Positions 42 to 27,133 are shown, counted from the stretch's first letter. The stretch: 27,133 nucleotides of DNA from Deinococcales bacterium (GCA_043778225.1 JAYWGM010000042.1:1-27133); one strand, 5' to 3'. A program made the numbers and translations. The notes: generated by a model from the letters alone, not told the origin.

Positions 42-848
42 ATGAAAAAACTTATGCTGTTTCTAGTCTCGAGCCTGCTGTTTTTCTCGGGCGCTGCCGC
101 AAATAGCCAGTATGCTTACCTGACCGATTTCAAAACCAATTTGACGATCCAAGCCGACACCACCGAACTGGTCAAACCGAGTGTAGCCGTGGCTCGAGGG
201 CAATTACCCAGTGGCGACGCACGGCATTATAAAATGATTTTCTCAGACCGTGTAAAAGGCTTTGAAACCCTAAAAATCAGCCCCAAAGCCAAAGTGACAC
301 TCCTGACTTTTCCAAGCCTTGCGCCCAAAGCCACTTCGCTCGAGAACCTGCGTTTGATGCTGAGTGGCGATGAAGCCCTACCGAGCGAATTTGAACGCAG
401 TTATATTTTTAAGTACACCCAGACTGGTAAAATAGTCACCAGTATTGCCCAAGTCAACACTCGAGCCGTGACGGGCGTATTTGAACAAGCCGTACTGATT
501 TCTAAAAAAAGTAACATCAGCGCCCGAAAATTCGTGTTGGATTTTGTAAATATCTACACCACCAGCCGTGAAATGCAGCGTGCTGGGCAAACGATGGATG
601 ATAACCCCGGTGGAATGAGTATTTCCAATACCAATCCGTTGCTACGAACCTTCAGCTTAGCTAAAAGCGGTCGGATTAAGCTCCTCAAAACCGTTGGCGA
701 ATACTTTAACGCAACCCTTGCACAACTCGAGGCTGGCTTGAATGGGCAAACTCTAGGCTATTTTTTCTCGTGGGAAACGCATTTTTATGCCACCATATCG
801 GATGTTACAAACGAAATGCTCGAGCTAAAACAAGGGTACGAGCCTTAA
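42..848 (+). CDS. Secreted hypothetical protein, possibly two internally repeated domains
   Basis: 268-aa ORF; GGGAG RBS before the ATG; Sec-type signal peptide MKKLMLFLVSSLLFFSGAAA; followed by a terminator. Confidence 0.8.
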   Translation: MKKLMLFLVSSLLFFSGAAANSQYAYLTDFKTNLTIQADTTELVKPSVAVARGQLPSGDARHYKMIFSDRVKGFETLKISPKAKVTLLTFPSLAPKATSLENLRLMLSGDEALPSEFERSYIFKYTQTGKIVTSIAQVNTRAVTGVFEQAVLISKKSNISARKFVLDFVNIYTTSREMQRAGQTMDDNPGGMSISNTNPLLRTFSLAKSGRIKLLKTVGEYFNATLAQLEAGLNGQTLGYFFSWETHFYATISDVTNEMLELKQGYEP

Positions 849-865
849 AACCTCCAAATTTTTCT

Positions 866-900
866 AACTCGAGACTGCTTTTTAGGGTCTCGAGTTTTTT
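866..900 (+). terminator. Rho-independent terminator whose stem is built from CTCGAG
   Basis: Stem AACTCGAGAC (866-875) / GTCTCGAGTT (887-896), followed by a T-run. Confidence 0.7.
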
Positions 901-971
901 GTTACGGTCTTGTCACGCTGGATTTTTATAGTGGTTTTATCTCGAGGGGAGTCTCGAGCAAGGAGAAGATT

Positions 972-1763
972 ATGAAAAAAATAATTGGAATTTTAGCCCT
1001 AGCCGGCATTTTAACCGCTTGCCCATCACCGCAACCAGTTGGCACAGCCTTGCCCACCACAGGTGGAACAGTCAGCAGCAGCGATACCAAAGCCTCTTTT
1101 GTCGCACCGATTGCTGGTGCTGGCACATTTGTTCAGGTCACATCCTCGAGCGACCAAGGGCAGATTCCAAGCGGACAAACCTTTGTCAGCGCCTATAATT
1201 TTGCAGTCACAGCAGGTTCAGTTGCAAATGCCACAATCAGCATTCAAGTTGCTGAACCTGTTGCACCAGCCATTTCGGTTCTCAAGGGAAACCCTGTGAA
1301 CCGCCTGTACAAACGCGATGGCAGTTTTTGGCGTTACGTGACAGGGCAAACCAACACCAGCACCACTGTTTCTGCTTCGGTCTCGAGTTACGGCGTGTAC
1401 GGTGTGCTGCGCGGCATTGCCACCATTAAGGACATTGTGGTCACACCCAATCCTGTTGTCATAGATCTAAATGGTAAAACTTCGGCTGTGACTCAACAAA
1501 TGACCGCCGTTGAGCGAGACAGCTTAGACCAGCCGATACCCAGCGTGGATTCATCCATAACTTGGATTTTGGGTAGTCAGGCATTTGCTGGCAGCCAACT
1601 CAGCCCACAAGCCTTGGTTGTGACTCCAGTCAACTCAATTGACAACACCACTGGCTTATTAACTGCCAGAGTTGCTGGTAGCGATACCATCATTGCCACT
1701 GGTAATCAAAATAAACAATCAGCTCCTGTCGCCCTGACCATCACTGGTTCATTAAATAAATAA
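972..1763 (+). CDS. Lipoprotein, beta-rich, probable Ig-like C-terminal domain
   Basis: AAGGAG RBS; lipobox LTAC after MKKIIGILALAGI; Ser/Thr/Val-rich; IVVTP...ITW...SID..TGLLTA...G..TIIAT resembles a bacterial Ig-like (Big_2) pattern. Confidence 0.75.
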   Translation: MKKIIGILALAGILTACPSPQPVGTALPTTGGTVSSSDTKASFVAPIAGAGTFVQVTSSSDQGQIPSGQTFVSAYNFAVTAGSVANATISIQVAEPVAPAISVLKGNPVNRLYKRDGSFWRYVTGQTNTSTTVSASVSSYGVYGVLRGIATIKDIVVTPNPVVIDLNGKTSAVTQQMTAVERDSLDQPIPSVDSSITWILGSQAFAGSQLSPQALVVTPVNSIDNTTGLLTARVAGSDTIIATGNQNKQSAPVALTITGSLNK

Positions 1764-1774
1764 AGGAGTTCACC

Positions 1775-2410
1775 ATGAAAAAAATTCTATTAACCGCCGC
1801 GCTATTCGCCTCGAGCCTTGTGCTTGCCCAAGATGCGGGTAGCCTTGCCGAAATCATTAAAACCTCAGCTTCTGAAGATTTCTTGTTTACGGGTATCGAA
1901 ATTCCTGTGCTCAAACAAATTATGGGTGACACCACCAAATCGGATACCAAGACCTATAACCTTAAAGACGCTGGCGGGTTTGAGATGAGTTATAAAGTTA
2001 CTAAGACCCCGTATTTTGTCCAGATTTTTGAGAGCAAAATGACGTACTGGATTACCTTTAATACTTATGTGACTCGAGATGATGCCTATATTGGTATGGT
2101 CACCAGCGCCCAAAAAGCCAGCAATGGACGCGGTAATGATTTGGCTTTTTACAGCATCACCAAGAAAAAACAAGTTTCGCCTAGCGATACCAAACTCTTT
2201 AATTACCCTGCGGTTGTGGCGTTTGCCAATGGCAAATGCAAAGTCCCCAAGGAAAATATTCACTTTGAACTCAAAGACGGTAGCGAAACGATTAAAATCT
2301 CGGGTTTTGATATTTTCCTGAGCGGCAAGAAATACACCTTGGCTGGAGAACTAAAACTTGACTTTAAGACTGGTGGATTTATTTTTGATAGTAAAAACGC
2401 CAAGTGTTAA
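1775..2410 (+). CDS. Secreted hypothetical protein
   Basis: AAAGGAG RBS; signal peptide MKKILLTAALFASSLVLA; 211 aa. Confidence 0.8.
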   Translation: MKKILLTAALFASSLVLAQDAGSLAEIIKTSASEDFLFTGIEIPVLKQIMGDTTKSDTKTYNLKDAGGFEMSYKVTKTPYFVQIFESKMTYWITFNTYVTRDDAYIGMVTSAQKASNGRGNDLAFYSITKKKQVSPSDTKLFNYPAVVAFANGKCKVPKENIHFELKDGSETIKISGFDIFLSGKKYTLAGELKLDFKTGGFIFDSKNAKC

Positions 2411-2480
2411 GAGCGCCAATCAGCCACGAGTCTTGAGCTACAAAGAGCTTTTAATTGGTCATCTCGAGAAAAGGAGCATC

Positions 2481-3911
2481 ATGAAAAAAGGTTTACTTGC
2501 ACTGTCTTTGCTGGCATTAACTGGCGTGGCATTGGCACAATTTAATCAGAATCGGAATTTACCGACCAAATTCCCAATAGATTGCCGTGCGCTTGACCGC
2601 CGTCCGACCAGCCCTGCCGAAGCCGTCCAGAATTGGAATTGGCGTTGCCAACGGGTTGCCGACCAATGGGGTAAGGGCGCACGTTTTGGTACAGGCATTG
2701 GACCCGCCCAATTGATGACCGGTTTTCCGACCAAGCCCGGCACAAGCCGCTACTGGGGCGGGTTTTTGGACAACGCCAAGCGCAAAATTTACATCGGCAG
2801 CACTTGGTCGGATAACCGCGATGTTGGCGGCGACCCAAAACTCAAGAATTTCGGTGTGATTTACGAAGTGGACATTGACTGGTCTAAACCCGAATCGGTC
2901 GGCAACCGCAAAGTGATAAGCGGCAAGTACCTAAGTCGTCAAGGTGATGTGGATGTCGGTGCTGGCGATACCCTGCGGACTGTCCGCACGATCAAAAAAG
3001 GCAAAGACGGAATGTTTTATGCCTTTACAATGGATCCAGGTAGCTTGCCGACAATTATGAAAATAGACCCAAGCAACGGCAACCGCAGCACCGTTTGGAC
3101 AGAAAAACCAATTCTGTACTCGGATAAACTCCAGTTCCCCAAAGACCAGTGCGAACAAGGCAGTGTGCCGCAAGCTCAAGGCGTGATGGGCAGCGTTCCA
3201 GCAAGCTCGAGACGAAGTAAGCAAGTCAATTTTAGTGGGCAGCCCTTCGAGATGAACCCAAACACTGGCGAGTTTTACCTGATTCCAATTAAAGGCACAG
3301 GTCCGCAAGGCATCATGAAAATCAGTGCTGACGGTAGCACCTGCTCTTGGGTCACACGAATGCGTGCCGACGGCAACAACAAGTACACCGACAATGCTGC
3401 TAACAAAGCCGACTCGAGCTATGGGCAACCCAACGGCGCAGGTCCACGAGGCACAGGTTTTACCAGCATGACTTTTGATGGTACAAACCCGTACTACCAC
3501 GAAATCAAAGGCAAGGCTTGGTTGTATGTTTCAAGCGGCAATAGCTACTGGCGTGCCGATGTCGAGACTGGCAACCGTGAATTGGTGGTGCAGCAAGAAC
3601 CCGGCGATACCAACAGCGTCTGGGATCCAGTTCGTAATTTCTTATGGACAAGTGGCACAGGCAATGGCTCGGGGATTGCACCCGTCACGATTAACGATGA
3701 AGAAAATCCAAAACTGCTGGGCAATATCTTTTGCCTTAATCCAACGGCTGCTTGGTTTCAGTGCATCCGTGGCGTTGGCGAAGCCGGACCACTTTTGCGT
3801 GGCGGATTATTCCTAGACCCGTCCGATGGTAATTTAATTATGGCTCACGATGCGGTTGGTTTGGTTCGCATCGAAGTGGCGACGGGCAACACCTACACTT
3901 TTTCCTTGTAA
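2481..3911 (+). CDS. Secreted hypothetical protein, probable beta-propeller
   Basis: Start moved to ATG 2481 (AAGGAG RBS; signal peptide MKKGLLALSLLALTGVALA); repeated blade-like motifs IMKIDPSNGNRS, IMKISADGS, YWRADVETGNRE, LVRIEVATGN; several Cys. Confidence 0.75.
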   Translation: MKKGLLALSLLALTGVALAQFNQNRNLPTKFPIDCRALDRRPTSPAEAVQNWNWRCQRVADQWGKGARFGTGIGPAQLMTGFPTKPGTSRYWGGFLDNAKRKIYIGSTWSDNRDVGGDPKLKNFGVIYEVDIDWSKPESVGNRKVISGKYLSRQGDVDVGAGDTLRTVRTIKKGKDGMFYAFTMDPGSLPTIMKIDPSNGNRSTVWTEKPILYSDKLQFPKDQCEQGSVPQAQGVMGSVPASSRRSKQVNFSGQPFEMNPNTGEFYLIPIKGTGPQGIMKISADGSTCSWVTRMRADGNNKYTDNAANKADSSYGQPNGAGPRGTGFTSMTFDGTNPYYHEIKGKAWLYVSSGNSYWRADVETGNRELVVQQEPGDTNSVWDPVRNFLWTSGTGNGSGIAPVTINDEENPKLLGNIFCLNPTAAWFQCIRGVGEAGPLLRGGLFLDPSDGNLIMAHDAVGLVRIEVATGNTYTFSL

Positions 3912-3923
3912 ACATAAGCCCCC

Positions 3924-3953
3924 AAAACCACCCATTAAATCTGGGTGGTTTTT
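3924..3953 (+). terminator. Rho-independent terminator
   Basis: AAAACCACCCA-loop-TGGGTGGTTTTT. Confidence 0.75.
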
Positions 3954-3985
3954 GTTGCCGTCAAATTCCAGATAAAATGTCAGCC

Positions 3986-4579
3986 ATGACCAACCAAGCA
4001 GCCAACTGGCTTTTTCCAATTTTGCTCGAGGGAAAACATATTCGGCTCGAGCCATTAAATCCAAGTCTTCATGCTGCACCAATGTTTGAATTCTTTGAGC
4101 CTCGAGTCACCGATTTTCTATCTCGAGGTGGGCAGCCGATAGCAAATGCTACAGATTTGCAAAAGCATCTCGAGGCGATAAATCAGATTCCTAAACGCCT
4201 CAACTGGGCGGTGCGGCTGCTCAAGACCAATGCGATTGCTGGGCGAATTTCGTACTCGGAAGTCAATGAAGCCAACAAGTGGCTCGAGGTTGGCACAATG
4301 CTGATGCCCGCTTTTTGGGGCAGCATGGCAAACCCAGAAGGCAAATTGCTGCTGCTGATCAGGGCTTTTGAAGTATTGGGCGCAAATCGAGTTCAGTTTA
4401 AGGTGGATGTACGTAATGAACGTTCTCAGGGCAGCATGGCAAAACTCGGTGCAGTGCGCGAAGGAGTTTTGCGCCAATCCCAAATTCGGGCTGATGGCTT
4501 TGTCCGAGACAGCGTGATGTACAGCATTTTGAAATCCGAATGGGGAGTGGTCAAGCAAAAGCTCGAGGCTCGAGTATGA
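3986..4579 (+). CDS. GNAT family N-acetyltransferase (RimJ/RimL type)
   Basis: LEGKHIRLEPL, LEVG, AFEVLGANRVQFKVDVRNERSQ...KLGAVREGVLR...RDSVMYSIL..EW; ATG 3986 is preferred because TAAAAT lies 7 nt upstream (alternative ATG 3977). Confidence 0.9.
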   Translation: MTNQAANWLFPILLEGKHIRLEPLNPSLHAAPMFEFFEPRVTDFLSRGGQPIANATDLQKHLEAINQIPKRLNWAVRLLKTNAIAGRISYSEVNEANKWLEVGTMLMPAFWGSMANPEGKLLLLIRAFEVLGANRVQFKVDVRNERSQGSMAKLGAVREGVLRQSQIRADGFVRDSVMYSILKSEWGVVKQKLEARV

Positions 4580-4821
4580 ATTGTGGTATCAAAGTAGCCA
4601 TTTCAATTCCCAACAAAACTTTTATTGCACTCGAGAAAATTGCTTTAGAACGCGATATATCATGCAGCGCTTTGTATACCCAAGCACTCGAAAAAATGCT
4701 TTTTGAACTCGAACAGAATACTTTGACAGAACACATCAATACAGCCATCGAAGCAGGTGCGTTTGAACGCGATGCTGTCTGGTCAGCCCAAGCCAATCAA
4801 ATGTTGGGTCGAGTTGAATAG
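4576..4821 (+). CDS. Ribbon-helix-helix antitoxin-like protein (ChpI/MazE-like); stop codon supplied by the IS end
   Basis: ATGA overlap with the GNAT stop; KVAISIP...LEKIALERDISCSALYTQALE resembles the K(T/V)AISIP..F...A...SRSxLY..AL antitoxin pattern; the TAG overlaps the left inverted repeat. Confidence 0.6.
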   Translation: MNCGIKVAISIPNKTFIALEKIALERDISCSALYTQALEKMLFELEQNTLTEHINTAIEAGAFERDAVWSAQANQMLGRVE

Positions 4822-5016
4822 ACCTCTTGCATAAGTCAGATTCGTGATGCACAGTACAGTATGGTCGTCAAGAGCAACCGATGGGAACACATTAAAAAGC
4901 TACTTAGCCAAAATTTTCGCTATCGTCGGAAGCGGTTTGGTTTAAGGGTGAACTTGATTGCTGGTTTGTATAATTTGGATGCAGGACAATGATTTTTGAC
5001 TTATGCAAGAGGTCTA
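4819..5016 (+). mobile_element. Non-autonomous, internally deleted IS5-family-like element (MITE)
   Basis: Perfect 24-bp inverted repeats at 4815-4838 and 4997-5020 (core TAGACCTCTTGCATAAGTC); internal ORF 4861-4992 MVVKSNRWEHIKKLLSQNFRYRRKRFGLRVNLIAGLYNLDAGQ, whose end matches the RRKRFGLR(F/V)NLIAG(I/L)YN C-terminus of IS5/ISL2-group transposases. Confidence 0.8.
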
Positions 5017-5201
5017 TTCACAGTAATGTTACGGCTGCTGCGCTCGGCTCGAGCCGCTTTGAGCTTGGCTTGTAAGTCCGAATCGAGTGGTTCTGCCAGT
5101 AGACTTGGGGTAAGGCTGTGCGAATCCCAGTAGGCTCGAGCTTGTTGCTCGGTCATATTTTTTGGAATATCAGCTTGGGTTTTAACGGTTTGTTTTTTCA
5201 T
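5001..5201 (-). pseudogene. Truncated BrnA/CopG-like antitoxin
   Basis: AGGAG RBS, ATG 5201; IPKNMTEQQARAYWDSHSL...RNITV resembles the IP...E.E...FWDTH...ITL antitoxin N-terminus; the frame runs into the IS right repeat before the RHH helices. Confidence 0.55.
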
Positions 5202-5285
5202 AGTAACTGCGCTCCTTTTGTTCTGCCACCCGAGCCGTGATGACTCGAACTTTATCACCAGACGATTGCCCAAGCACTTTTGCGG
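5182..5285 (-). pseudogene. BrnT-like toxin C-terminal remnant
   Basis: Manual translation AKVLGQSSGDKVRVITARVAEQKERSYYEKTNR*; matches the BrnT G..IRVISAR.A...ER..YE tail and overlaps the antitoxin start. Confidence 0.55.
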
Positions 5286-5354
5286 TACAATAAACCCATA
5301 AGGCATTGAAAACGAAACACAGCGAGGTTCGCAATGCCGCCACCGAGGTGATTT

Positions 5355-6698
5355 ATGACGCAAACTGTTAGTCGTCAAGAGCAGCATCAGGCTCAACATA
5401 AAAAGTATGTCCTCAGCAGTTGGGTCGCCCAAGGCGCACTCAATGCCCCAGTCGTCACTCGCGGCGAGGGTCGTTTTTTCTTTGATGAGGACGATAATCG
5501 TTACTTGGATTTAAGTTCGGGTCTGGTCAGCACCAACCTTGGACATGGGCATCCAAGGGTGGTCAAAGCGATTCAAGACCAAGCTGCTAAACTCTGCTAC
5601 AGCCCAACTGGGTACTTTCAGGACAAACGGGCAGAACTCGGCGAGGCAATTATTAAACTGACCCCGTGGTCTGAAGGCGGTCGGGCATTTTTTACGACTG
5701 GCGGCGCAGAAGCCAACGATGACGCGGTACGCATGGCTCGAGCCATCACTGGGCGTTTTAAGGTCTTAGCAACCTACCGCAGTTACCACGGCAGTACGGG
5801 TGTCGCCATGCAACTGACCGGCGAAGACCGGCGCTTTGGCAACGAGCCAGCCTTGTCGCCGGGGATTGTGCATTTTTTTGCGCCGTACCCATACCGCAGC
5901 CCGTTTTATACCCAAGACCCATTTGAAGAAACGGCTCGAGCGCTTGAACACCTCGAGCGCACCCTGATGCACGAGAACCCGCGCAATGTGGCAGCCATTT
6001 TGCTCGAGCCAATTGTTGGTTCTAATGGCGTGATTATTTACCCAAAAGGCTATCTCGAAGGGGTACGCCGAATTTGTACCCAACATGGTATCTTGCTGAT
6101 TTTTGATGAAGTTATGACTGGGTTCTGGCGCACTGGCAAGGCTTTTGCAGCCCATACGCTCGGGGTCACGCCAGACATGATCGTCTTTGCCAAAGGTGTG
6201 ACCAGTGCCTATATTCCGCTTGGTGGGGTCTTAATCCGCGAAGGATTAGCCCAATACTTTGACATCAAAGCCCTGCCCGTTGGTCATACGTATGCGGGGC
6301 ATCCACTTTGCTGCGCGGCGGGTTTGGGCGCAATTGCGGCTTACCAAGAAGATGGCATTGAAGAACACGTGGCACAACTCGAGGGTTGGCTACGCACTGG
6401 CTTAAAAGAACTCGAGAGTCGCTACCAAACACTGGGTGAGGCTCGAGGCATTGGGGCATTCTGGGCGCTAGAATTTGTCAAGGACAAAGACACCCGCGAA
6501 CCGCTTGTGCCTTGGCATGGCGATGGACCTGGAATCATGAAGAATTTCTTTTTAGAACTTCGTAAACGTGGTGTCTTTAGTTTCGGCAAGTTTAACATTG
6601 CCATGGTCACACCCCCCTTAAACACCACAAGGGGTGAATTAGATTTGGGTCTCGAGGCATTGGATGCGGCTTGTAAAGCTATAGATGCCGCCGTCTAA
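5355..6698 (+). CDS. Class III PLP-dependent aminotransferase (omega-amino acid/taurine-type)
   Basis: RYLDLSSGLVSTNLGHGHP, FTTGGAEAND, YRSYHG, LEPIVG, LIFDEVMTGFWRTG, PDMIVFAKGVT (PLP Lys), GHTY; GAGGTG RBS. Confidence 0.92.
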   Translation: MTQTVSRQEQHQAQHKKYVLSSWVAQGALNAPVVTRGEGRFFFDEDDNRYLDLSSGLVSTNLGHGHPRVVKAIQDQAAKLCYSPTGYFQDKRAELGEAIIKLTPWSEGGRAFFTTGGAEANDDAVRMARAITGRFKVLATYRSYHGSTGVAMQLTGEDRRFGNEPALSPGIVHFFAPYPYRSPFYTQDPFEETARALEHLERTLMHENPRNVAAILLEPIVGSNGVIIYPKGYLEGVRRICTQHGILLIFDEVMTGFWRTGKAFAAHTLGVTPDMIVFAKGVTSAYIPLGGVLIREGLAQYFDIKALPVGHTYAGHPLCCAAGLGAIAAYQEDGIEEHVAQLEGWLRTGLKELESRYQTLGEARGIGAFWALEFVKDKDTREPLVPWHGDGPGIMKNFFLELRKRGVFSFGKFNIAMVTPPLNTTRGELDLGLEALDAACKAIDAAV

Positions 6699-6711
6699 AC
6701 ATAAGTAATCC

Positions 6712-6749
6712 AAAAAAGGCGAACCTCGAGGTTCGCCTTTTTGTTTTTT
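6712..6749 (+). terminator. Rho-independent terminator, palindrome centred on CTCGAG
   Basis: AAAAAGGCGAACCTCGAGGTTCGCCTTTTT followed by a T-run. Confidence 0.85.
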
Positions 6750-6754
6750 GGTAT

Positions 6755-6819
6755 TGTTAAAAATACTTGACATTATGTCTGATTTGTTTTACATTAGCCA
6801 ATGTAAAAGATTTTTGATA
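6755..6819 (+). promoter_or_regulatory. Sigma70 promoter overlapped by three palindromic operator boxes
   Basis: -35 TTGACA 6767-6772, 17-nt spacer, -10 TACATT 6790-6795; boxes TGTTAA-N6-TTGACA (6755-6772), TGTCTG-N6-TTTACA (6776-6793), TGTAAA-N6-TTGATA (6802-6819). Confidence 0.65.
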
Positions 6820-6842
6820 TTGGCTACAATCAAAGGAGCAAA

Positions 6843-7271
6843 ATGACTTACGAAGAAAAATGGACGTGGATGTATGGGCTGATTTCAATTGTTGCCTTTG
6901 GCTGGTACTTGGTCTGGCTGCTTGGGCAGGCTTTCGGTATTGCACCAACCCAAATTACCTATGTCGTCCCGATGATTGCAGCCATCGGTAGTGCCGTTCT
7001 GGCTTCGATTGTTGGTAATATTTTGATTGCTCTGGCTGCCCCCAAAGAAGCCGATAAACGCGACCAGCGCGACCAAGAAATCCAGCGCCACGGCGATTAC
7101 AGTGGGCAGTTTATGGTCAACCTTGGCGGCTTGGCGGTTCTGATCATGTGTATGTTGCAACTCAATCATTTTTGGATTGCCCACACGATGTATTTTGCTT
7201 TTGTTGGCTCGGCAATTGTCAGTTCGGTGGTTAAAATTATCTCGTATCGCCAAGGTTTTGCGCCGTGCTAA
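6843..7271 (+). CDS. Four-TM membrane protein (DUF2178-like)
   Basis: AAGGAG RBS; four hydrophobic segments; central DQRDQEI (DERD-like) motif; overlaps an XRE gene. Confidence 0.75.
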   Translation: MTYEEKWTWMYGLISIVAFGWYLVWLLGQAFGIAPTQITYVVPMIAAIGSAVLASIVGNILIALAAPKEADKRDQRDQEIQRHGDYSGQFMVNLGGLAVLIMCMLQLNHFWIAHTMYFAFVGSAIVSSVVKIISYRQGFAPC

Positions 7272-7483
7272 AAGCCACGCAAATCACCAATTCAATTCGG
7301 GCATTGCGCTTTGCCAACAACGAAATGACCCAAGCCGACTTGGCAGATAAAATCGGCATGACCAGACAAACCGTGATTGCGATTGAACAAGGTAAGTATT
7401 CACCTTCGCTTGAGGTGGCTTTTCAGATTGCCAGAATTTTCAAAGTCAGACTCGAGGAGGTTTTTCACTACCCAGAGCCATAA
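7265..7483 (+). CDS. XRE/Cro-family HTH transcriptional regulator
   Basis: NSIRALR...MTQADLADKIGMTRQTVIAIEQGKYSPSLEVAFQIARIF..LEEVF. Confidence 0.92.
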   Translation: MLKATQITNSIRALRFANNEMTQADLADKIGMTRQTVIAIEQGKYSPSLEVAFQIARIFKVRLEEVFHYPEP

Positions 7484-7558
7484 ATCTAAACCGTAAAAGC
7501 AGCAGCGTAAGAATTATTTCTTCGCGCCAGCCCAAGTATTGTCAAAAGGAGAACCATC

Positions 7559-10674: not shown

Positions 10675-10925
10675 TGTCTAGCCTCCTGTTTAACCACTCT
10701 AAATCAAATTTATGGTCTGATTAGAGTACGTGCCTACAGTTATGAATGGATGTTTAACTCGAGTCCAATTGAATTGTAAAGCTGACGTAATCGCTATTGA
10801 CCACTTAAACGAATTTGTACCAACTTTCTTCTCGAGCCAGACGGCACAAACAGATTTACATTGTTCAACACAAATCGTTCAACGCTTCTCGAGCCAACCA
10901 TTTTAGGGATACAATAAGGTTTCTT

Positions 10926-12686
10926 ATGGATGCTCGGGAGCAAATTCGTCAACGTTTGGACATCCGCGAGGTGATTGCGGAATACGTGGCGTTGAAACCT
11001 GCTGGAGCAAACAAATGGAAAGGCTTATCGCCGTTTTCTAAAGAAAAAACCCCAAGTTTTAATGTGGATGTGCTAAAGCAACTCTGGTTTTGCTTTAGCA
11101 CCAAACAAGGCGGCACAGTTTTTGACTTTGTGATGAAAGTCGAGAACATCAGTTTCCGTGAAGCCCTCGAGAAATTGGCTGCCAAGGCTGGTGTGACCCT
11201 CGAGCCACGCAGCCCCTCGGAGTCTGGCAGTAAAAAACGCGATTTATTTGAAGTTAATGCTTTGGCTGCCCAGTTTTTCCAAAGCCAACTCGAAGGGTCA
11301 GAAGCCTTTGGCTACCTCGAGAAACGCGGCGTGAGTACAGCCAGCCTCAAAACCTTTGGCTTGGGTTTTGCCCCAAATGCTTACGATGGCTTAATGAAAT
11401 TTGCCAAAGCCCGTGGGGTTGGCGAACGCGAATTGCTCGAGGCTGGGCTGCTTTCCGAAAACGAAAAAGGCAGTATCTATGACCGCTTTCGTAATCGTGT
11501 GATGTTTCCGATTGCCGATTACCTTGGGCGAATTGTGGCTTTTGGTGGGCGGGTTCTGGACGACAGCAAACCCAAATACCTCAACAGCCCAGAAACCGAG
11601 GTTTTCAAAAAAAGCGAAACCCTGTACGGCTTAAACCTTGCCCGTAAGCACATCCAAGAGACTGGCGAAGCCGTGGTCGTCGAAGGTTACATGGATGTGC
11701 TGATGATGCACCAACATGGTCTGGCGGGGGCTGTGGCAAGCCTTGGCACTGCCCTAACCCAAGACCACGCCCACTTGTTGGCTCGCCAAGGCGCAAGACG
11801 GCTGGCAATGATGTTTGATAACGACCCAGCCGGGCAACGCGCTACTTTAGCTGGCTTAGACCAAGAAATTGGCAAACTCTTTTTGGTGCGTGCCGTGGTT
11901 GCCCCAAGTGGCAAAGATGCCGCCGATATTCTGTTGGCTGGCGGTCAAACCGACCTCGAGACAGCCCTAAACGGTGGGATTTCTGAAGTCGAATTTAGGC
12001 TCAATACTGCCCTCGAGAAATACAGCCCCAACACCTTAGATGGCAAACGCAACATTCTGCAAATGCTGTTACCGCGCCTCCGCCCACAGCACGTTTTTGA
12101 CCCCGTGGCGCTCGAGTTACAGCGCTTGGTCATAGACCGCCTGATGCTCGACCAAAAAATGCTCGAGACCTATCTGAATCAAAACCGCCCCAAGCAAACT
12201 TCGCCGCGCCTAGACGATGTGCAAATGCGTGGCATGGCTCGAGGTAACTCTGGCGATGAGTTAAAACTGGCTAAATTTTTAATTCAAAACCCAGCTTTAA
12301 TCGCCAAACTCGATGGCGAAGCTGCCTTTGAAAGCCCACTGGTTGCCGAAGTGATTAGCGTGGCTCGAACCGCCACCAGCACCGAACAGATTTTAGAGCA
12401 TTTTCGTGGACGACCCGAAGCCCATATTTTACTCGAGGGGCTTTTTGTGCCAAACCGCACCACCAACCATTCGTTTATTCCTGGCGAAATGGCATCTGAC
12501 CGTGTTGAATTTGCTGCCACCGAAATATCTTCGCGCAACCGTGAAGAAAGTTTGCGGCTCGAGTTGGCTGGACTCAAAGCCCAGATTCCCAAAGCACCAC
12601 TCGAGCAGCAGATTGTCTTGGCGCGGCAGTGTAGCGAACTACAAAAAGCGGTCGAAGCTGAACGGCGTTTACGAATGCGGAACTGA
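10926..12686 (+). CDS. dnaG: DNA primase
   Basis: EKTPSF N-terminal domain, YDRFRNRVMFPI, AFGGR, PKYLNSPET, VVEGYMDV and FDNDPAG TOPRIM motifs; ATG 10926 after TACAAT. Confidence 0.95.
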   Translation: MDAREQIRQRLDIREVIAEYVALKPAGANKWKGLSPFSKEKTPSFNVDVLKQLWFCFSTKQGGTVFDFVMKVENISFREALEKLAAKAGVTLEPRSPSESGSKKRDLFEVNALAAQFFQSQLEGSEAFGYLEKRGVSTASLKTFGLGFAPNAYDGLMKFAKARGVGERELLEAGLLSENEKGSIYDRFRNRVMFPIADYLGRIVAFGGRVLDDSKPKYLNSPETEVFKKSETLYGLNLARKHIQETGEAVVVEGYMDVLMMHQHGLAGAVASLGTALTQDHAHLLARQGARRLAMMFDNDPAGQRATLAGLDQEIGKLFLVRAVVAPSGKDAADILLAGGQTDLETALNGGISEVEFRLNTALEKYSPNTLDGKRNILQMLLPRLRPQHVFDPVALELQRLVIDRLMLDQKMLETYLNQNRPKQTSPRLDDVQMRGMARGNSGDELKLAKFLIQNPALIAKLDGEAAFESPLVAEVISVARTATSTEQILEHFRGRPEAHILLEGLFVPNRTTNHSFIPGEMASDRVEFAATEISSRNREESLRLELAGLKAQIPKAPLEQQIVLARQCSELQKAVEAERRLRMRN

Positions 12687-16586: not shown

Positions 16587-18290
16587 ATGAAACGCTTTTT
16601 GGCACTGCTAACCCTGACCTCGAGTGCCTATGCCACACCTATTTTCTTAAACGACCGACCACTTGAGCCACCGCTCGAGACTCGAGTCGATTTGGACAGC
16701 ACCCCACTCGAGAGCGCCCTTGATGAGCGTTTGCCTTTGGCGGTGCTTGAGCGTTTTGGAGTGGTGGTGCAGACTTCAAGCCTTGATGGCAAAATTCGGA
16801 TGCAGACCGAGGAGATACAAGAAGAGCAAACTATCGTCAAGTCAAGGCTCGAGTGGCAGCCCGAAAAAGGCTGGGTCAATGCAACTGGCGAAGTCTTGCA
16901 GGGCTGGAATGCGCCAGCCACCAAAGATGGCACAACCTATGTCCCCGTTAAATGTTTACAAGCGCTTGGCTTTACACTTGAGGTTCTCGAGACAGGCATA
17001 CAAGTTCGCAGCGAAGCCAACACCCTACCAACGGGTGGCTTAAATCAAATTCTCGAGCTTCGCAGCCTCAAAGGGCGCAACAGCCGCGTGACTTTAGGAT
17101 TGGCGCGAACAGCAGAATTCTTTGTTCTCGAGAAAACCGCCACTCAATTTAAGCTCAAATTGCCCAACACAGTCACACAGCCACGTTTTCAGGCGGTGGG
17201 TTCAGAAAGCCTTTCTCGGGTACGGGTGCTGCGGTTGGGCAACGATTCGATTTTAGAAGCCGAATTGCCACGCGGTTCAAAACTCGAGGTCAGTGCCAAC
17301 GGCAAAGAAGTCTTTGTGGACAGTTCGGATTTGGTGGCTGCGCCTGTTCCCTTGCCGGGGGAATTGCCCAACGGTGTGACTTATACGGTTACGCCATTTG
17401 GTGCAAGTAAACTGCATTTATTGCGGCTCGAGGCTGCCAAGTACCGCCCAGAGGTTGTGACTGCCCCGTGGGGTGGGGCAAAAAGCCTGCTTGAGTTTGC
17501 CGATGGCGCAGTCGCAGCCGTCAATGGTGGCTACTTTGACCCTGCCAGTATGCAGGCGGTGGATTTATTGTTTAACGGTTCAATCCAAGCCTATTCGCGT
17601 GGCAACCGTGCCACGATTGGTTTTTTAGACAACAGCACCTTGTTTGGAATTCCCAAAGCCAGATTGGTTTTGAATCTTGGGGCAACCGTTGCCAATGTCA
17701 ATCAGATTCGCCCTAGCCCGCACCCGCAGAATCTCACTTTTTTTATCGGTGATGGTTTTGTGCCAGTTGGCGGTTTGGGGTTTACGACTTTGGTGATTGC
17801 CAACGGTCTGGTTCTCGAGCGCCACGAGGCTGGTTTTGTGCCTAAAATAGGGCAACTGACCGTTTCGTTTAATCCAAAAACAAATCCAAGTTTTGAGCGA
17901 AAAATTGGCGACCCCGCCAGCCTAAATTTAACCTGGAGCGACCCTGCTTGGGCAAATGTCGGGAGTGGGCTGGCGGCTGGACCACGTTTAATTGCCAACG
18001 GAGTCTTTGCAGTCAATCCACAAGCCGAGGGCTTTGACCCAACTGGCGAGATTTGGCGACCAACCCGCCAAGTTGGTATCGGTATAGACAACAACAATAA
18101 TTATGTGCTGGCAATGCTCGAGTTTGGCTCGCCCGAAGATTTTGCTAGAGCGCTGCTGGCTCAGGGCTTGCGCGAAGCCATGCGCTTAGACAGTGGCACA
18201 AGCGCTCAGTTGGTGCTGGCTGGCGGGGCGGTGGCGGGGCGAGTTGGACGGTCTGTGCCGAATGCACTGGTTTTTAAGGCTCGAGAATAA
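16587..18290 (+). CDS. Secreted phosphodiester glycosidase (NAGPA-like) family protein
   Basis: Signal peptide; AVAAVNGGYF, AAGPRLI, PTRQVGIG, AMRLDSGTS (LDGGGS variant), RSVPNALV. Confidence 0.82.
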   Translation: MKRFLALLTLTSSAYATPIFLNDRPLEPPLETRVDLDSTPLESALDERLPLAVLERFGVVVQTSSLDGKIRMQTEEIQEEQTIVKSRLEWQPEKGWVNATGEVLQGWNAPATKDGTTYVPVKCLQALGFTLEVLETGIQVRSEANTLPTGGLNQILELRSLKGRNSRVTLGLARTAEFFVLEKTATQFKLKLPNTVTQPRFQAVGSESLSRVRVLRLGNDSILEAELPRGSKLEVSANGKEVFVDSSDLVAAPVPLPGELPNGVTYTVTPFGASKLHLLRLEAAKYRPEVVTAPWGGAKSLLEFADGAVAAVNGGYFDPASMQAVDLLFNGSIQAYSRGNRATIGFLDNSTLFGIPKARLVLNLGATVANVNQIRPSPHPQNLTFFIGDGFVPVGGLGFTTLVIANGLVLERHEAGFVPKIGQLTVSFNPKTNPSFERKIGDPASLNLTWSDPAWANVGSGLAAGPRLIANGVFAVNPQAEGFDPTGEIWRPTRQVGIGIDNNNNYVLAMLEFGSPEDFARALLAQGLREAMRLDSGTSAQLVLAGGAVAGRVGRSVPNALVFKARE

Positions 18291-19672: not shown

Positions 19673-19832
19673 GAATTGGTTTAGAATATCGGTATGAACG
19701 CACTCATGCCAAAACTTCAAATGCTGATTGCGCGAAAACCATTGCGCGGCTAAGGGCTGCGCCTCCATATCTGTTTGCGCTGCTCGAGGTTAATGCTCGA
19801 GCTACATTTTTTAGAATGTTTTAAGGAGTTTT

Positions 19833-21371
19833 ATGTCCGACCAAGAAACCCAGTCACGCCCACACGAACAAACGCCGTCACGCTCACACGAACAAATGCC
19901 GTCACGCCCACACGAACAAACCCAAGCCCGCCTAAATAATTTAGCCGCCCTCGAGCAAGCTGGCTTTGCCCGTTTTCCATATTCGTACAACCAAACGCAT
20001 TCAGCCGCCACGCTGCACGCCGCCCACCCAGCCCCACTCGAGTCTGGTTTGGAGTGGCTCGAGGAGCCCGTTTCTTTGGCGGGGAGAATTATTTCTTGGC
20101 GCGACACTGGCAAACTGATTTTCGCCGATTTACAAGACCAATCGGGGCGAATCCAATTGTTTATCTCTAAAAATGCCGTGCCACAATTTGAGGCTGCCAA
20201 GTTTATAGACCTTGGCGATATTCTTGGTGTGACTGGACACCTGATGACCACCAAAACAGGAATGCTCTCGGTCAAGGTGACTGGCTTTACGCCACTGGTT
20301 AAGTCTTTGCATCCATTGCCCAGCGATTACTATGGGCTTGCCGATAAAGAATTGCGCTACCGCCGGCGTTACTTGGACTTAATTGTCACCCCAGACTCGA
20401 GAAAAGTCTTTTTGAGGCGCAGTAAAATCGTGCGCTTTATCCGAAACTTTTTAGATAATAAAGACTTTATTGAAGTCGAAGGACCAACCCTACAAGCCAT
20501 CGCCGGTGGCACAGAAGCCAAGCCCTTTGTGACCCACCACAATGCGCTCAGTCACAATTTTTCCTTGCGGATTGCACTCGAGCTACACCTCAAGCGCCTT
20601 TTGGTCGGTGGTTTTGAGCGGGTCTATGAAATCGGACGGGTTTACCGCAACGAAGGCATTGACCAAACCCACAACCCAGAATTTACGATGCTCGAGTTGT
20701 ACCAAGCCTACACCGACTACGAAGGCATTATGCTACTTGTCGAAGAACTCTGCTCGAGTTTGGCGCTTGCCGTGGCTGGCAGCACCGATGTTGTTTATGA
20801 AGACAAAAAGCTTAATTTTGCCGCTCCGTTTGCTCGACTCGAGTACCTGCCAGCCCTTTTAGAACACGTTCCAGAACTTAATTTTGACCCACTCGAGCTA
20901 GACAAATTGCGAATTTTTTGCGACGCTCGCTATCCCCAATGGAAAGCTGTTCCAGATTATAAACTGCTCGATAAATTGTTTGGAATGTTTGTCGAACCGC
21001 TGATTTTGCATCCCACCTTTGTGATTCATCACCCAATTTTAATTAGTCCACTTGCCAAACCACACCGTAGCTTGGCTGGCGTGACCGAGCGCTTTGAGCT
21101 TTTTGCCAGTGGTTTTGAACTTGCCAATGCTTTTTCTGAACTCAATGATGCCTTTGACCAACGCGCCCGTTTTGAAGCCCAAAGCGCTCGGCGCATTGCC
21201 GGCGACGACGAAGCGCCCGAACAAGACGAGGATTTTTTGTTGGCGCTCGAGTATGGAATGCCACCCGCCGGCGGCTTAGGTATTGGGATTGACCGCCTTG
21301 TGATGTTGCTGACTAACCAAACCAGCATCCGCGATGTGCTGCTTTTTCCACTCTTAAAACCTGAAGGCTAA
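19833..21371 (+). CDS. lysS: Lysine--tRNA ligase, class II
   Basis: AAGGAG RBS; OB-fold AGRI...[93 protein letters not shown]. Confidence 0.97.
19851..19922 (+). repeat. In-frame 24-bp tandem repeat x3 in the 5' end of lysS
   Basis: C(A/C)GTCACGC(C/T)CACACGAACAAA.. x3, encoding [24 protein letters not shown]. Confidence 0.88.
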
Positions 21372-21477
21372 AAAGTTCAGCACAAAACCGCGTTCTGCGC
21401 TATACTGGGTTATTCATTCGAGCTTACTCGAAACTTACCCACTCGAGCTTTCTCGAGAATCCCCACGGAGGTTCTTC

Positions 21478-22716
21478 ATGCCCATTTTTACTTACCGAGT
21501 CCGAGATGCCGCAGGCAAAATAATTTTGTCAACCATGGAAGCCGATACGTCCAAGTCGGTGCGCGATAAATTGCGCGAAAAAAACCTGACAATTGTTTCG
21601 ATTACTGAGCCAAAAACAGGTATCAACCAAGACTTGCAATTGCCGGGTTTTTTGAACGAAGAAAACCAGATGCCCGGCTTAAAACCAGTTGCTATTTTTG
21701 CCCGTCAGATGGCAACCATGATTGATGCTGGCTTACCGTTGGTGCAATCTTTGACCATTCTGCAAAAGCAGTCCGAGCATAAGGGCTTAAAAAAGATTTT
21801 GCGTGATATTCGTCAGACGGTCGAAAGTGGTATCCCTTTTTCTGACGCTTTAATTAAGTATCCAAGTGTATTTGATCGTTTGTTTATCAATCTTGTACGG
21901 GCTGGTGAGGTTTCGGGTACGCTTGACACGGTGCTTGACCGCGTGGCAATTTTCAAAGAAAAGGACTTGGCACTGCGCGGTAAAATTCGTGGTGCGCTGA
22001 CTTACCCGACCATTGTTTTGGTGTTTGCTTTGGGTGTGACTTACTTTTTGTTGACTACGATTGTGCCGCAGTTCGCTAAAATGATTAAGGATGTCAATCC
22101 AAACGCTAGTTTGCCGGGTATCACAATCTTTTTGCAAGTGGTTTCAGATTTCTTACTGAATCAAACATGGCTCTTGGGTCTGATTATTGGTGCATTGGCG
22201 ATTGCCTACCATTACTACTACAAAACCGATCAGGGTCGCCACGTGATTGACCGTTTCAAAATGAAAGCCCCTGTTTTTGGCAATCTGATTTCTAAGGCTT
22301 CGTTGGCATCGTTCTCGAGAACCTTATCGTTGCTGATTAAAAGTGGTGTCAACATCATCGAAGCGCTGGACATCACAAGGGGGGCTTCAAACAATGCGAT
22401 TGTCGAAGATGCCCTGACCAACGCTAAAAATGCCGTCATGCAGGGCGAGCAAATGTCGCAGCCGATGGCAGCTGCCGTAGATGTTTTTCCACCAATGGTC
22501 ACTTCGATGGTTTCGATTGGCGAAGAAACGGGTGGCTTAGACACGATGCTTGATAAAGTTGCTGATTATTACGAGCGCGAAGTGGATGAAGCTGTAGACC
22601 AACTGACTGCCGCCATTGAACCGATTATGATTATTTTCTTGGGTGCAATCGTCGGTGTGATTGTGGCTGGTATGTTTTTACCGATGTTTGCCTTGATTGG
22701 CGAGTTGTCGAAGTAA
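21478..22716 (+). CDS. pilC: Type IV pilus platform protein PilC (T2SS F family)
   Basis: MPIFTYRVRD..G, FARQMATMIDAGLPL, LVRAGEVSGTLD, ALTYP, FSRTLS.LI.SGV, IGEETGGLD.ML.KVADYYE.EVD, IEPIMI. Confidence 0.93.
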   Translation: MPIFTYRVRDAAGKIILSTMEADTSKSVRDKLREKNLTIVSITEPKTGINQDLQLPGFLNEENQMPGLKPVAIFARQMATMIDAGLPLVQSLTILQKQSEHKGLKKILRDIRQTVESGIPFSDALIKYPSVFDRLFINLVRAGEVSGTLDTVLDRVAIFKEKDLALRGKIRGALTYPTIVLVFALGVTYFLLTTIVPQFAKMIKDVNPNASLPGITIFLQVVSDFLLNQTWLLGLIIGALAIAYHYYYKTDQGRHVIDRFKMKAPVFGNLISKASLASFSRTLSLLIKSGVNIIEALDITRGASNNAIVEDALTNAKNAVMQGEQMSQPMAAAVDVFPPMVTSMVSIGEETGGLDTMLDKVADYYEREVDEAVDQLTAAIEPIMIIFLGAIVGVIVAGMFLPMFALIGELSK

Positions 22717-25239: not shown

Positions 25240-25255
25240 GGCTCGAGTCTACCGC

Positions 25256-25366
25256 GAAAGAGCAAGGGTAAAAGGGCAAGGGTAAAAGGGCAAAGGGTAA
25301 AAAGGTGAAAAGTAAAAACTTAACCCTTTTTACCTTTTCACCTTTTCACCTTTTCACCTTTTTACC
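25256..25366. repeat. Short 7-8-mer repeats forming a purine/pyrimidine inverted array
   Basis: (AAGGGTAAAAGGGC)x2...GGTAAAAAGGTGAAAAG, then (CCTTTTCA)x3 CCTTTTTACC; includes a perfect 17-bp inverted match. Confidence 0.75.
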
Positions 25367-26418
25367 TATGTTTTTAGTACCACGTGTTCGGCACTAAATC
25401 CTGGTCCCATGGCAGTCAAAAGGGCGTGTTCGCCTTTGGGGATTTCTCCTAGGCGCTGCATAAATGCCTCGAGAATAAACAGGACGGTTGGGCTGCTCAT
25501 GTTGCCGTGGTTCTCGAGAATGCGACGTGAATCTTCGAGTTTTTTGTTTTCCAGTCCGAGGGCTTCGATAAAGGCTTGCATCACTTTTTCTCCGCCCGGA
25601 TGGGTGATGAAGTGCTGGACTTGCTCGAGTTCTAGATTAAATTGCTCAAAACAACGGGTTACATCGCTACGAATATGTTTTTCGACCACCAGTGGCACAC
25701 TTTTCGAGAGCAGGACTTTTAAGCCAGTGTTGACGATTTCCCAGCCCATGACTTCTTCGGTGTCGTCCCAGAGGGTACTCGAGCCGCCCAGTATCTCTAC
25801 GCCGTGGTCTTGACCCGATAACACCACGGCGGCTGCACCGTCGGCAAAAAGACTGGTGCTGATTAAGTTGGCACGGCTTGGGTCGTTGGCTTGAAAAGTC
25901 AGGCTCGAGCATTCGACCGCCACCAACAAAACGCTGCTGTTTGGGTAAGCACGAATATACTCGGACGCACGGTTGAGTCCGGCTGCGCCACCGGCACACC
26001 CCAAGCCCCAAATCGGTAAGCGCATGGCATGCCGGCTGATACCAAGGCGCTTGATCAGCCAACTGTCCAGACTTGGCGTGGCTAAGCCGGTACTCGAGAC
26101 AAATAAAATCGCATTGATTTGCTCCGCCCCAATACCAGACTTCTCGAGCGCGGTTTTTGCGGCGCGTTCGGACATTTCTCGGGCTTGTTCAATATAAATC
26201 TGGTTGCGTTCCGACCAACTTCGTAACTCGTAATACCATTCAAGCGGGGCACTGAGGTAACGGGTTTTGACGTGTCCGTTGTCAAAAACATTGAGTAGCC
26301 GCTCGAGGTCTCGAGAAGTGTTCTTAAAAATCGCACCAATCAGGTGCCGCACCGCATCCTGAGAAACCTTGTACGGCGGTAGAGCAGTGCCTACAGCAAG
26401 AATACGAGGTTCAGACAT
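25366..26418 (-). CDS. Type III polyketide synthase (chalcone synthase-like, BpsA/SrsA type)
   Basis: Start [15 protein letters not shown] at 26418; VSSTG..TPSLD, GLGCAGG (catalytic Cys), VECSSL, LFADGAAA, HPGG (His), GNMSS (Asn), AMGPGF. Confidence 0.93.
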   Translation of the reverse strand: MSEPRILAVGTALPPYKVSQDAVRHLIGAIFKNTSRDLERLLNVFDNGHVKTRYLSAPLEWYYELRSWSERNQIYIEQAREMSERAAKTALEKSGIGAEQINAILFVSSTGLATPSLDSWLIKRLGISRHAMRLPIWGLGCAGGAAGLNRASEYIRAYPNSSVLLVAVECSSLTFQANDPSRANLISTSLFADGAAAVVLSGQDHGVEILGGSSTLWDDTEEVMGWEIVNTGLKVLLSKSVPLVVEKHIRSDVTRCFEQFNLELEQVQHFITHPGGEKVMQAFIEALGLENKKLEDSRRILENHGNMSSPTVLFILEAFMQRLGEIPKGEHALLTAMGPGFSAEHVVLKT

Positions 26419-27133
26419 TATCCATCGCTTTCTGGGGTTTGGCAAGTTTCGCGGTAGACATACTGCGATAATTTTTTGCGATGCCGACTGCTCCAGTCTA
26501 TGGTTGGGCGGCGGTTGCCCTCTTTTAAGTAACCAAGTCGGTAAATCGCCATCAATTCGAGATTGTCCGGGACACGTAAAATCTGCTTCATTTTTTCCCA
26601 GCACTCGGGAATTTCCATTGGCGTACTGATAAATTGAATCCCCATACCGAGTGCGTGGGTGGTCAGCCAAATGTTTTCCATGGCTGCCCCCATCCCAAAA
26701 ATACTGTAAAATCCAGACAGCTTGCCGGGAATATACTCGGCTTTATCGAGCATCACCCCAATCAGCAAAGGGCTACCCGCCACAAGGTCTTTGTTGTCTT
26801 TACCGAGCATTTTTGGCACACCTAAATTTCGCATGATACTGACCCCAGTTGGCGACATCACTTGCTTGGCAAAGGGTTTTAGCGGTCCTGGCAATTGGTC
26901 AAAATGAATTCCATCGCCTCGGGCTGATAATTCGCTTTCCGAAAAACGAAAATAGGGTCTGTAGCGGTCAAAAAAAAGTCCTTCTTGGATAAGGCGCTCC
27001 ATCGAGTAACCCGCCAGTTCTGCCACCTCGAGAATCCGTGCTTTATCCTCGAGCAGCACAAAACGCCACGGTTGCGAATTAAAATGACTCGGCGCTCGAG
27101 AAGCCGCTTCCATCAGGGTTTTTTGGTGTTCAC
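26418..27133 (-). CDS. Nitroreductase family protein; 5' end lies outside the window
   Basis: Frame open to the window edge ([25 protein letters not shown]); GAAMENIWL...LGMG, IYRLGY; TAATG overlap with the PKS start. Confidence 0.88.

Follow-up and report, generated by a model that had tools for sequence, protein, structure and literature searches.

The locus considered here raises the question of why a single six-base palindrome, CTCGAG, recurs over and over along a 27,133-nucleotide stretch of DNA from a Deinococcales bacterium (GCA_043778225.1, JAYWGM010000042.1:1-27133; hereafter the window, meaning this stretch at its full length). A sequence-only reading of the window had put the number of copies at about 155, judged that Leu-Glu codon bias is insufficient to account for them, postulated an active process that creates or keeps the sites, and likened the word to HIP1, the highly iterated palindrome of cyanobacteria. 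Our analysis indicates that the excess is almost certainly a genuine drive acting at the level of DNA. In the best reading of the evidence, CTCGAG belongs with HIP1 among the highly iterated palindromes and would be sustained by a fixation bias that operates site by site.

Abundance and context of CTCGAG

A program counted 156 CTCGAG sites in the window, in close agreement with the manual estimate, the first at position 68 and the last at 27095-27100. Dinucleotide-preserving shuffles of the window (n = 100) contained 3.44 copies on average and 9 at most, none reaching 156, so that the excess amounts to 45-fold over the shuffles and 24-fold over the uniform expectation of 6.6. The assembly that holds the window (G000, in which the window is C42:1-27133) comprises 4,029,277 bases in 107 contigs, has a guanine-plus-cytosine (GC) content of 48.7% and is 89% complete. 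In total, it carries 24,877 copies, or 6.2 per kilobase (kb), which is 26.7 times the zero-order expectation and 20.5 times the level in an empirical null genome, G197. CTCGAG is the top hexamer of G000 by count, occurs on all 107 contigs (3.99 to 10.6 sites/kb) and occupies 3.7% of the bases; the second most enriched palindrome reaches only 2.5-fold. Thus, the enrichment described in the window is genome-wide, and it extends to all 18 relatives sampled from the same family. Long pieces of window positions 1-20000 were reproduced with 0 differences in contigs assembled independently from two sequencing runs (X1 and X2, both from one study; X1 may be the source sample).

The over-represented word is limited to exactly six bases. 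The ten flanking positions on each side are near background composition, with a slight avoidance of C immediately 5′ and of G immediately 3′, so that no longer repeat or mobile element surrounds the word. TCGA outside the CTCGAG context is not enriched in G000, and 89% of the TCGAG words have C directly before them. The permuted palindromes GAGCTC and GTCGAC, which the sequence-only reading had not noticed, are indeed missing from the window (0 copies of each) and number 24 and 49, respectively, genome-wide. Words deviating from CTCGAG by one base amount to 6,184 at positions 1/6, 3,503 at positions 2/5 and 4,106 at positions 3/4; normalised to G197, these become about 0.91, 0.87 and 0.75, a weak trend toward the outer positions, where most single-base deviants of highly iterated palindromes differ. 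Relative to G197, one-off neighbours of CTCGAG stand at 0.85 and two-off neighbours at 0.77, the most depleted one-off words being the transversion neighbours CTGGAG (0.48) and CACGAG (0.52); transition neighbours stand close to 1.

Genes were called as the longest non-overlapping open reading frames (ORFs) of at least 120 amino acids, an approximation that yielded 3,244 genes in G000. The density is 6.17 sites/kb in coding and 6.21 sites/kb in non-coding DNA, and codon phases 0, 1 and 2 hold 12,703, 4,331 and 4,470 sites, respectively, 59% of the coding sites being in the Leu-Glu phase. Permuting synonymous codons within each gene, which preserves both the protein sequence and the codon usage, left the three phases with about 1,580, 380 and 320 sites, 8, 11 and 14 times fewer than observed. 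Within the window, gene calls of the same approximate kind place 74, 31 and 23 sites in the three phases versus 13.0, 3.2 and 0.8 after the synonymous shuffle, with densities of 5.59/kb in coding and 6.59/kb in non-coding DNA. Because the excess survives an amino-acid-preserving shuffle and is equally dense outside genes, Leu-Glu codon bias is ruled out as its cause, as the sequence-only reading had argued; the examples that it gave of the three codon phases, at positions 68, 193 and 339, are correct when checked against ORF 42-848. A dicodon-preserving shuffle retains the CTC-GAG codon pair by construction and is hence unable to refute anything. Outside the motif, CTC accounts for 9% of Leu codons and GAG for 23% of Glu codons in G000.

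The density is equal in the first 90 nucleotides of genes and in the remainder, flat upstream of gene starts and mildly raised 10-40 bases past stop codons. Transfer RNA (tRNA) genes contain 6 sites versus 33 expected at the genome density, showing that strong constraint resists CTCGAG yet does not exclude it. ARAGORN identified 68 tRNA genes in G000, and 4 of the 6 that bear CTCGAG lie in a tight cluster at about 9.9-12.8 kb of contig C19, perhaps an array of tRNA genes that evolves fast.

The gaps between sites in G000 are Poisson-like (mean 161 bases, coefficient of variation [CV] 0.998), departing from this distribution in that they follow the 3-base period of coding DNA and are too rarely shorter than about 20 bases. 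Among the distances of up to 400 bases that were examined, no helical or other periodicity beyond 3 was found. Spacing 6 is absent because such an arrangement would create the avoided word GAGCTC. Doublets with spacing 7 (CTCGAG-N-CTCGAG; n = 123), despite being out of frame, outnumber those with spacings 8-11 by a factor of 3 to 4; their centre base shows no preference, and 97 of the 123 are located in coding DNA. This excess may hint at cooperative recognition of neighbouring sites.

The sites are distributed unevenly with respect to base composition. Genes below 38% GC carry 0.89 sites/kb and those above 54% GC carry 7.96 sites/kb, and of 14 gaps that exceed 1.8 kb, 11 have 31-39% GC; one gap of this length contains a methylase gene without any CTCGAG. 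CTCGAG is scarce in low-GC, foreign-looking DNA, and the excess is confined to resident DNA.

Turnover of sites and their mark on proteins

Gain and loss of sites were followed in codon alignments of 17 window genes, each with 2 to 7 orthologs from the genus. In these alignments, the baseline identity is 0.557 for synonymous codons and 0.49 for four-fold sites. Codons outside motifs are retained at frequencies of 0.34 (CTC), 0.40 (GAG), 0.22 (CGA) and 0.47 (TCG), and inside motifs at 0.79, 0.85, 0.59 and 0.81, respectively. Where Leu-Glu is conserved, 207 of 267 comparisons preserve the complete motif (0.775), whereas the behaviour of these codons outside motifs predicts 0.137. Conversely, 30 of the 77 Leu-Glu pairs that are not spelled as the motif in G000 (39%) are CTCGAG in the ortholog. 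Joint retention and regain of this order support the active process that the sequence-only reading had postulated. A two-state model with an equilibrium of 0.69 fits both retention and regain with a decorrelation factor of 0.27 to 0.44; in our model and reading of it, site positions would turn over at a roughly neutral timescale, with losses slowed and gains speeded.

The occupancy of synonymous opportunities points in the same direction, being 0.69, 0.56 and 0.42 by phase in G000 versus 0.08, 0.02 and 0.02 in G197. The corresponding log-odds shift is 2.6-3.0 relative to the synonymous transition neighbours (CTTGAG and CTCGAA) and up to 5.0 relative to other spellings. The dynamics look like those of a fixation bias of scaled strength about 3, unlike those of a pure mutational source. 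Polarisation by parsimony gave 8 one-step losses and 0 one-step gains, clean events that are too few to tell direction. Among 40 variants listed in contigs from the public runs, none falls inside CTCGAG, and 2 sites within contigs of divergent strains are intact, an anecdotal observation that covers contigs only.

The sites have left a mark on proteins. In G000, 69% of Leu-Glu pairs are spelled CTCGAG, and Leu-Glu is the most over-represented dipeptide, with an observed-to-expected ratio of 2.33 compared with 1.24 to 1.27 in three lineages that were sampled and lack the motif; measured against that baseline, G000 would have, very roughly, 8,000 surplus Leu-Glu pairs out of 18,383. In the alignment of lysyl-tRNA synthetase (LysRS) with relatives, some sites are synonymous recodings of a conserved Leu-Glu, and others stand where relatives have Val-Asp, Ile-Asp or Leu-Asp. 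An origin of the sites as 6-base insertions (footprints) was considered and ruled out, no indel being present at any site of this alignment, and the alignment indicates that CTCGAG sites arise by point substitution. Across 109 ortholog pairs, G197 has Leu-Glu at 120 of the 437 phase-0 sites of G000, the commonest alternatives being LD, IE, LK, VE and LQ; proteins have thus been altered to fit CTCGAG.

Distribution across Deinococcota and candidate genes

A survey of 301 genomes of the phylum (genome sizes rounded; the tally includes the unpublished G265, which enters no other result) places G000 in a gradient of site densities. The named relatives of G000 are metagenome-assembled genomes, and the assemblies of most relatives are incomplete; intermediate lineages were sampled at 18 to 40 kb each, and the null values for G197 refer to a 460-kb sample. 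All 18 sampled relatives in the family of G000 (f1), from five genera, carry 4.3 to 6.8 sites/kb. Several genera of families f5 and f2, together with G196 of family f3, have 2 to 3.6 sites/kb, and another member of f3, G253, has 7.0. Genomes of the genus g9, which are Thermus-sized, carry about 0.6 to 1.6 sites/kb, and the 100 genomes of the genus g7 display avoidance, with 0.01 to 0.2 sites/kb. Densities above 4 sites/kb are found only in the family of G000 and in G253. The family to which the Thermus-sized genomes belong includes several genera of intermediate excess (2 to 3.5 sites/kb), which bears on the similar enrichment that the sequence-only reading mentioned for some Meiothermus genomes. 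Samples of G196, G086, G010, G207, G019 and G220 exceed their own synonymous shuffles in all phases, with 45-72% of Leu-Glu pairs spelled CTCGAG, the G020 sample has zero CTCGAG, and that of G022 shows no excess over its own shuffle. Thus, the CTCGAG excess is patchy over the phylum: every one of the 19 genomes in the family shows it, three other families show it more weakly, and elsewhere it is absent or the word is avoided. In one 20-kb stretch of G022 (L082; G022:C1:1-20000), TCGA and CTCGAG are equally numerous (20 each), every TCGA lying inside CTCGAG, although CTCGAG there is not in excess over the codon shuffle; the pattern probably reflects codon usage combined with TCGA avoidance.

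A natural experiment is offered by G253 and G197, which share a genus label and are each other's closest relatives in three genes. G253 (about 50% GC, 640 contigs) has 24,536 sites in 3.5 megabases (Mb), and G197 (50% GC, five contigs, 95% complete) has 683 sites in 2.3 Mb. The two are 76% identical in LysRS (tree support 94/96), 77% identical in PilC (99/99) and, by identity only, 57% in ComEC (at most 53% to others), and both are merely 58-69% identical to G000. In G197, the phase counts of 75, 12 and 18 equal those of its own shuffle (68, 15 and 13), 8% of Leu-Glu pairs are spelled CTCGAG, and the non-coding density is 0.35/kb. Once the responsible agent is lost, as we infer for G197, CTCGAG would thus fall to exactly the null level.

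The sequence-only reading had placed the responsible gene outside the window, and the gene content agrees, since the window encodes housekeeping functions only and no methylase or nuclease. Elsewhere, G000 encodes 5 complete C5 methylases together with several N4/N6 enzymes and one of the D12 class, and 8 of its proteins match the Eco57I family, to which M.TaqI belongs. At the family level, C5 enzymes are present in 17 of the 18 relatives (none in G010) and N4/N6 enzymes in 16 (none in G013 and G002); G196 also lacks an N4/N6 enzyme. D12 enzymes are present in the 5 best genomes, as different orthogroups, and two gamma-class candidates are sporadic in distribution. The NCBIfam names of the methylases give no specificity. 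It is possible that unrelated enzymes of the same specificity serve different genomes, specificity being unreadable from sequence.

Several individual candidates were rejected. L053 (650 amino acids; MerR-like, N6 methylase and TaqI-like specificity domains) occurs in G000 and just 2 of the 18 family relatives; L056 (about 1,340 amino acids, type IIG-like) has true orthologs only in G000 and G009; and L047, an HhaI-like C5 methylase beside an HNH nuclease, is an ordinary restriction-modification (R-M) pair, found in G006 (80% identity) and G253 (60%) and not in G013. ComEC and PilC do not discriminate either, since G197, G020 and G022 have them just as motif-rich genomes do. The profile of the XhoI-family nuclease (PF04555) had no match in G000 and none in 14 control genomes, and is hence uninformative.

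G197 has no match to the C5, N4/N6 and Eco57I families, and it tolerates restriction-type words, including GGCC, that are nearly missing from G000; together, these observations indicate that R-M has been lost altogether from this genome, a correlation rather than an identification of the agent. G000 itself shows extreme avoidance of many such words: in its 4 Mb, GGCC occurs 131 times (never in the window), GATC 2,061, GGCGCC 3, GACGTC 1 and AGGCCT 1, and GAGCTC, with its 24 copies, is also among the rare ones. About half of the hexamer palindromes are below 0.1 times expectation in G000, alongside a large and sporadic set of methylase genes, and G197 displays no avoidance of this kind.

The sites and genes of the window discussed in this work are listed in Table 1. 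Scans of the window for tRNA genes and Rfam families returned no match. At positions 4819-5018 lies an element of roughly 200 bases with terminal inverted repeats of about 22 bases and no CTCGAG within; its halves recur at or near the ends of contigs C55 and C12 (96-98% identity) and in the relative G005 (94-99%), and at this locus read depth is elevated and contigs of the runs break. It looks like a small mobile element of the miniature inverted-repeat transposable element type. At positions 4053-4364, contigs of both runs include a form that omits 310 bases within a GNAT acetyltransferase gene (3977-4579); C55 carries a paralogous stretch of 66% identity, and the skip could reflect strain variation or a paralog-driven assembly effect. 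On the minus strand, at 15388-16561, a small Ras/Arf-like GTPase adjoins a Roadblock/LC7 protein, forming an MglA/MglB-type polarity pair.

Table 1. CTCGAG sites and genes of the window, with coordinates counted from its first base
Feature	Coordinates	Strand	Basis or remark
All CTCGAG sites of the window	68..27100		n = 156; spacing mean 174 bases, median 121 bases, CV 0.97
Site in phase 2 (xxC TCG AGx), ORF 42-848	68..73		Phase worked out from coordinates
Site in phase 1 (xCT CGA Gxx), ORF 42-848	193..198		Coordinates against ORF
Site in phase 0 (CTC GAG, Leu-Glu), ORF 42-848	339..344		Coordinates against ORF
Four non-coding sites (868, 889, 941, 953)	868..958		123-base spacer between ORFs 42-848 and 972-1763
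Doublet CTCGAG-N-CTCGAG, spacing 7	4562..4574		Among the 123 of G000
DnaG primase gene, 14 sites	10815..12686	+	Ortholog comparison with 7 genus members
Second doublet of spacing 7	16674..16686		Site coordinates
LysRS gene, 10 sites	19833..21371	+	Alignment with relatives
Longest stretch without a site, within the PilC gene (44% GC; the sites lie 862 bases apart)	21458..22313		Site coordinates

Explanations for the excess

HIP1 (GCGATCGC) and the alternate HIPs of cyanobacteria, as described in the available portions of two studies (PMC4390886, PMC5861425), resemble CTCGAG in being short perfect palindromes with a CG-containing core, over-represented tens-fold, located within genes in all frames as well as between genes, conserved among relatives beyond the neutral level, scarce in recently acquired DNA, and lineage-wide with exceptions; the mechanism of HIP1 is still argued over. 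By contrast, CTCGAG has six bases rather than eight, is another word in another phylum, and exceeds about sixfold the density of roughly one site/kb given in the available text of Elhai (PMC4390886), a value that equals the saturation predicted there by a methyl-directed mismatch-repair ratchet. CTCGAG is Poisson-distributed at short range (up to 400 bases; the periodicity of HIP1 lies at 10-90 kb), and it distorts the proteome strongly, as seen in the 2.33-fold over-representation of Leu-Glu. Furthermore, HIP1 co-occurs with CGATCG and GATC methylases, whereas no methylase was found to track CTCGAG. The likeness to HIP1 proposed in the sequence-only reading thus stands for frame-independence, and is doubtful for the association with a methyltransferase, since no orthogroup that tracks the word was found among the C5, N4/N6 and D12 classes. 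A literature search found no report of CTCGAG abundance in Deinococcota, including Meiothermus, and Elhai 2015 (PMC4390886) mentions neither CTCGAG nor Deinococcus.

If CTCGAG is a palindrome of this kind, the force behind it would read double-stranded DNA, blind to genes, frames and position, writing CTCGAG in and preventing its decay, and would amount to a fixation bias of scaled strength about 3 exerted on each site independently. The most likely agent would be a factor that recognises CTCGAG as a dimer and tilts the repair of mismatches or heteroduplexes toward the full palindrome; such repair could be very-short-patch-like or gene-conversion-like and might be coupled to methylation of CTCGAG. 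Palindromes suit dimeric readers of duplex DNA, a principle established by type II enzymes and numerous nucleases of repair. A bias of sequence-specific repair in favour of a methylase's own site over its near neighbours is familiar from the Dcm/Vsr very-short-patch repair of Escherichia coli (CCWGG); its effect there is small, however, and here no Vsr was found, no C5 methylase is common to the genomes and the deamination neighbours are undepleted. The recognition word itself is that of XhoI/PaeR7I-type R-M systems, but restriction causes site avoidance, as in the genus g7, and not a 27-fold excess. Methylation of CTCGAG as 5-methylcytosine occurs, according to the available part of one report, in the archaeon Halorubrum sp. 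BOL3-1 (PMC8112702).

We give the biased-repair mechanism somewhat less than an even chance of being correct, and several observations weigh against it. The deamination neighbours CTTGAG and TTCGAG stand at 0.91 and 1.07 relative to G197, whereas Vsr-like repair should deplete them. A search of the 89%-complete G000 for Vsr (PF03852) gave no match, while the same profile matched 3 of 14 control genomes, and MutL is present both with and without the motif (its absence from G253 is probably a gap in that 640-contig assembly). No methyltransferase orthogroup is common to the motif-rich genomes in the C5, N4/N6 and D12 classes, the gamma class having been partly compared: G010 has no C5 enzyme; G013, a one-contig genome, has no N4/N6 enzyme, and its sole C5 enzyme is at most 35% identical to all others fetched, including the single one of G006; and G000 lacks the D12 orthogroup to which the enzymes of G013, G009 and G011 belong. 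In addition, slower loss combined with faster gain fits selection or an uptake-linked drive just as well, and a similar conservation of HIP1 has been taken, in the available text of Xu et al. 2018 (PMC5861425), as evidence against biased repair.

A broader form of the proposal would be that Deinococcota carry a switchable machine that reads duplex CTCGAG and biases fixation without a dedicated, vertically inherited methyltransferase. Such a machine would be at full strength in one family and G253 and would run at reduced strength in several genera that belong to three other families, whereas in G197, the Thermus-sized genomes and g7 it would be switched off. We regard it as a possibility, if a doubtful one.

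A transformation-linked drive, in which CTCGAG, perhaps methylated, would mark DNA of the cell's own kind, and motif-rich fragments, being taken up or recombined more, would spread by molecular drive, seems to us rather unlikely. The DNA uptake sequences (DUS) of Neisseria and uptake signal sequences (USS) of Pasteurellaceae are likewise genome-wide over-represented words with drive-like accumulation and a mark on proteins, and the distortion of the proteome by CTCGAG has a known counterpart in that caused by the Pasteurellaceae sequences. However, these are non-palindromic words of 9-12 bases that occur about once per kb in naturally competent hosts, whereas CTCGAG has six bases, is palindromic and is six times denser. 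An uptake signal would fit the lack of the motif in foreign-looking DNA and the concurrent lack in G197 of the motif and of matches to three methyltransferase families, and HIP1, according to the available part of one study (PMC13756078), boosts transformation, an effect that depends on methylation, and has been proposed as an uptake sequence. Although the uptake genes ComEC and PilC occur in the lineage, they are equally present in the motif-free G197 and the motif-avoiding G020, and the Poisson spacing, with its lack of any sign of one-per-fragment saturation, and the lack of a methylase that tracks CTCGAG speak against this explanation.

Direct selection for a cellular role of dense sites, through the binding of a nucleoid, segregation or self-recognition protein (Chi-like nuclease protection or chromosome architecture), appears improbable. 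Sites are retained far better than neutral and CTCGAG is found on every contig, as selection would have it, and a selective, chromosome-structure role has been argued for HIP1 in the available text of Xu et al. 2018 (PMC5861425). Yet the turnover of positions is near neutral (decorrelation of 0.27-0.44 versus a four-fold identity of 0.49), no helical or short-range periodicity and no link to gene starts are seen, CTCGAG is wholly erased from the near-complete 2.3-Mb G197, and the cost would be thousands of amino-acid changes.

Passive causes (codon or dipeptide preference, base composition, remnants of a GC-rich ancestry, or an assembly, binning or repeat artefact) are refuted: although the Leu-Glu phase predominates among coding sites and GC-rich relatives favouring CTC and GAG carry 1 to 3 sites/kb, in every phase the excess outlasts the synonymous shuffle, non-coding DNA shows it equally, CTC and GAG are minor codons outside the motif, G197 has no excess at the same GC and the G022 sample none over its shuffle, the random flanks speak against a repeat element, and the excess recurs in 19 separately assembled genomes and in contigs from a second sample.

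To our knowledge, highly iterated palindromes have hitherto been known only from cyanobacteria, and CTCGAG would be a second case, in an unrelated phylum, denser and more forceful. In practical terms, it marks foreign DNA sensitively in the genomes concerned, and it biases the codon-usage, dipeptide and k-mer statistics that are used for binning and annotation; XhoI and TaqI would cut this DNA, if unmethylated, to very small pieces. The cause of HIP1 is a 30-year-old problem, debated between a repair ratchet, chromosome structure and an uptake signal. The Deinococcota provide natural controls that have no cyanobacterial counterpart, namely graded strength and a sister pair at the extremes with the same GC, so that the responsible gene should be findable by phylogenetic profiling; the part-strength lineages may include near-complete genomes, perhaps from isolates. 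If the switchable machine exists, its gene would be within reach of comparative genomics and testable at the bench, and would offer a first mechanistic handle on HIP1.

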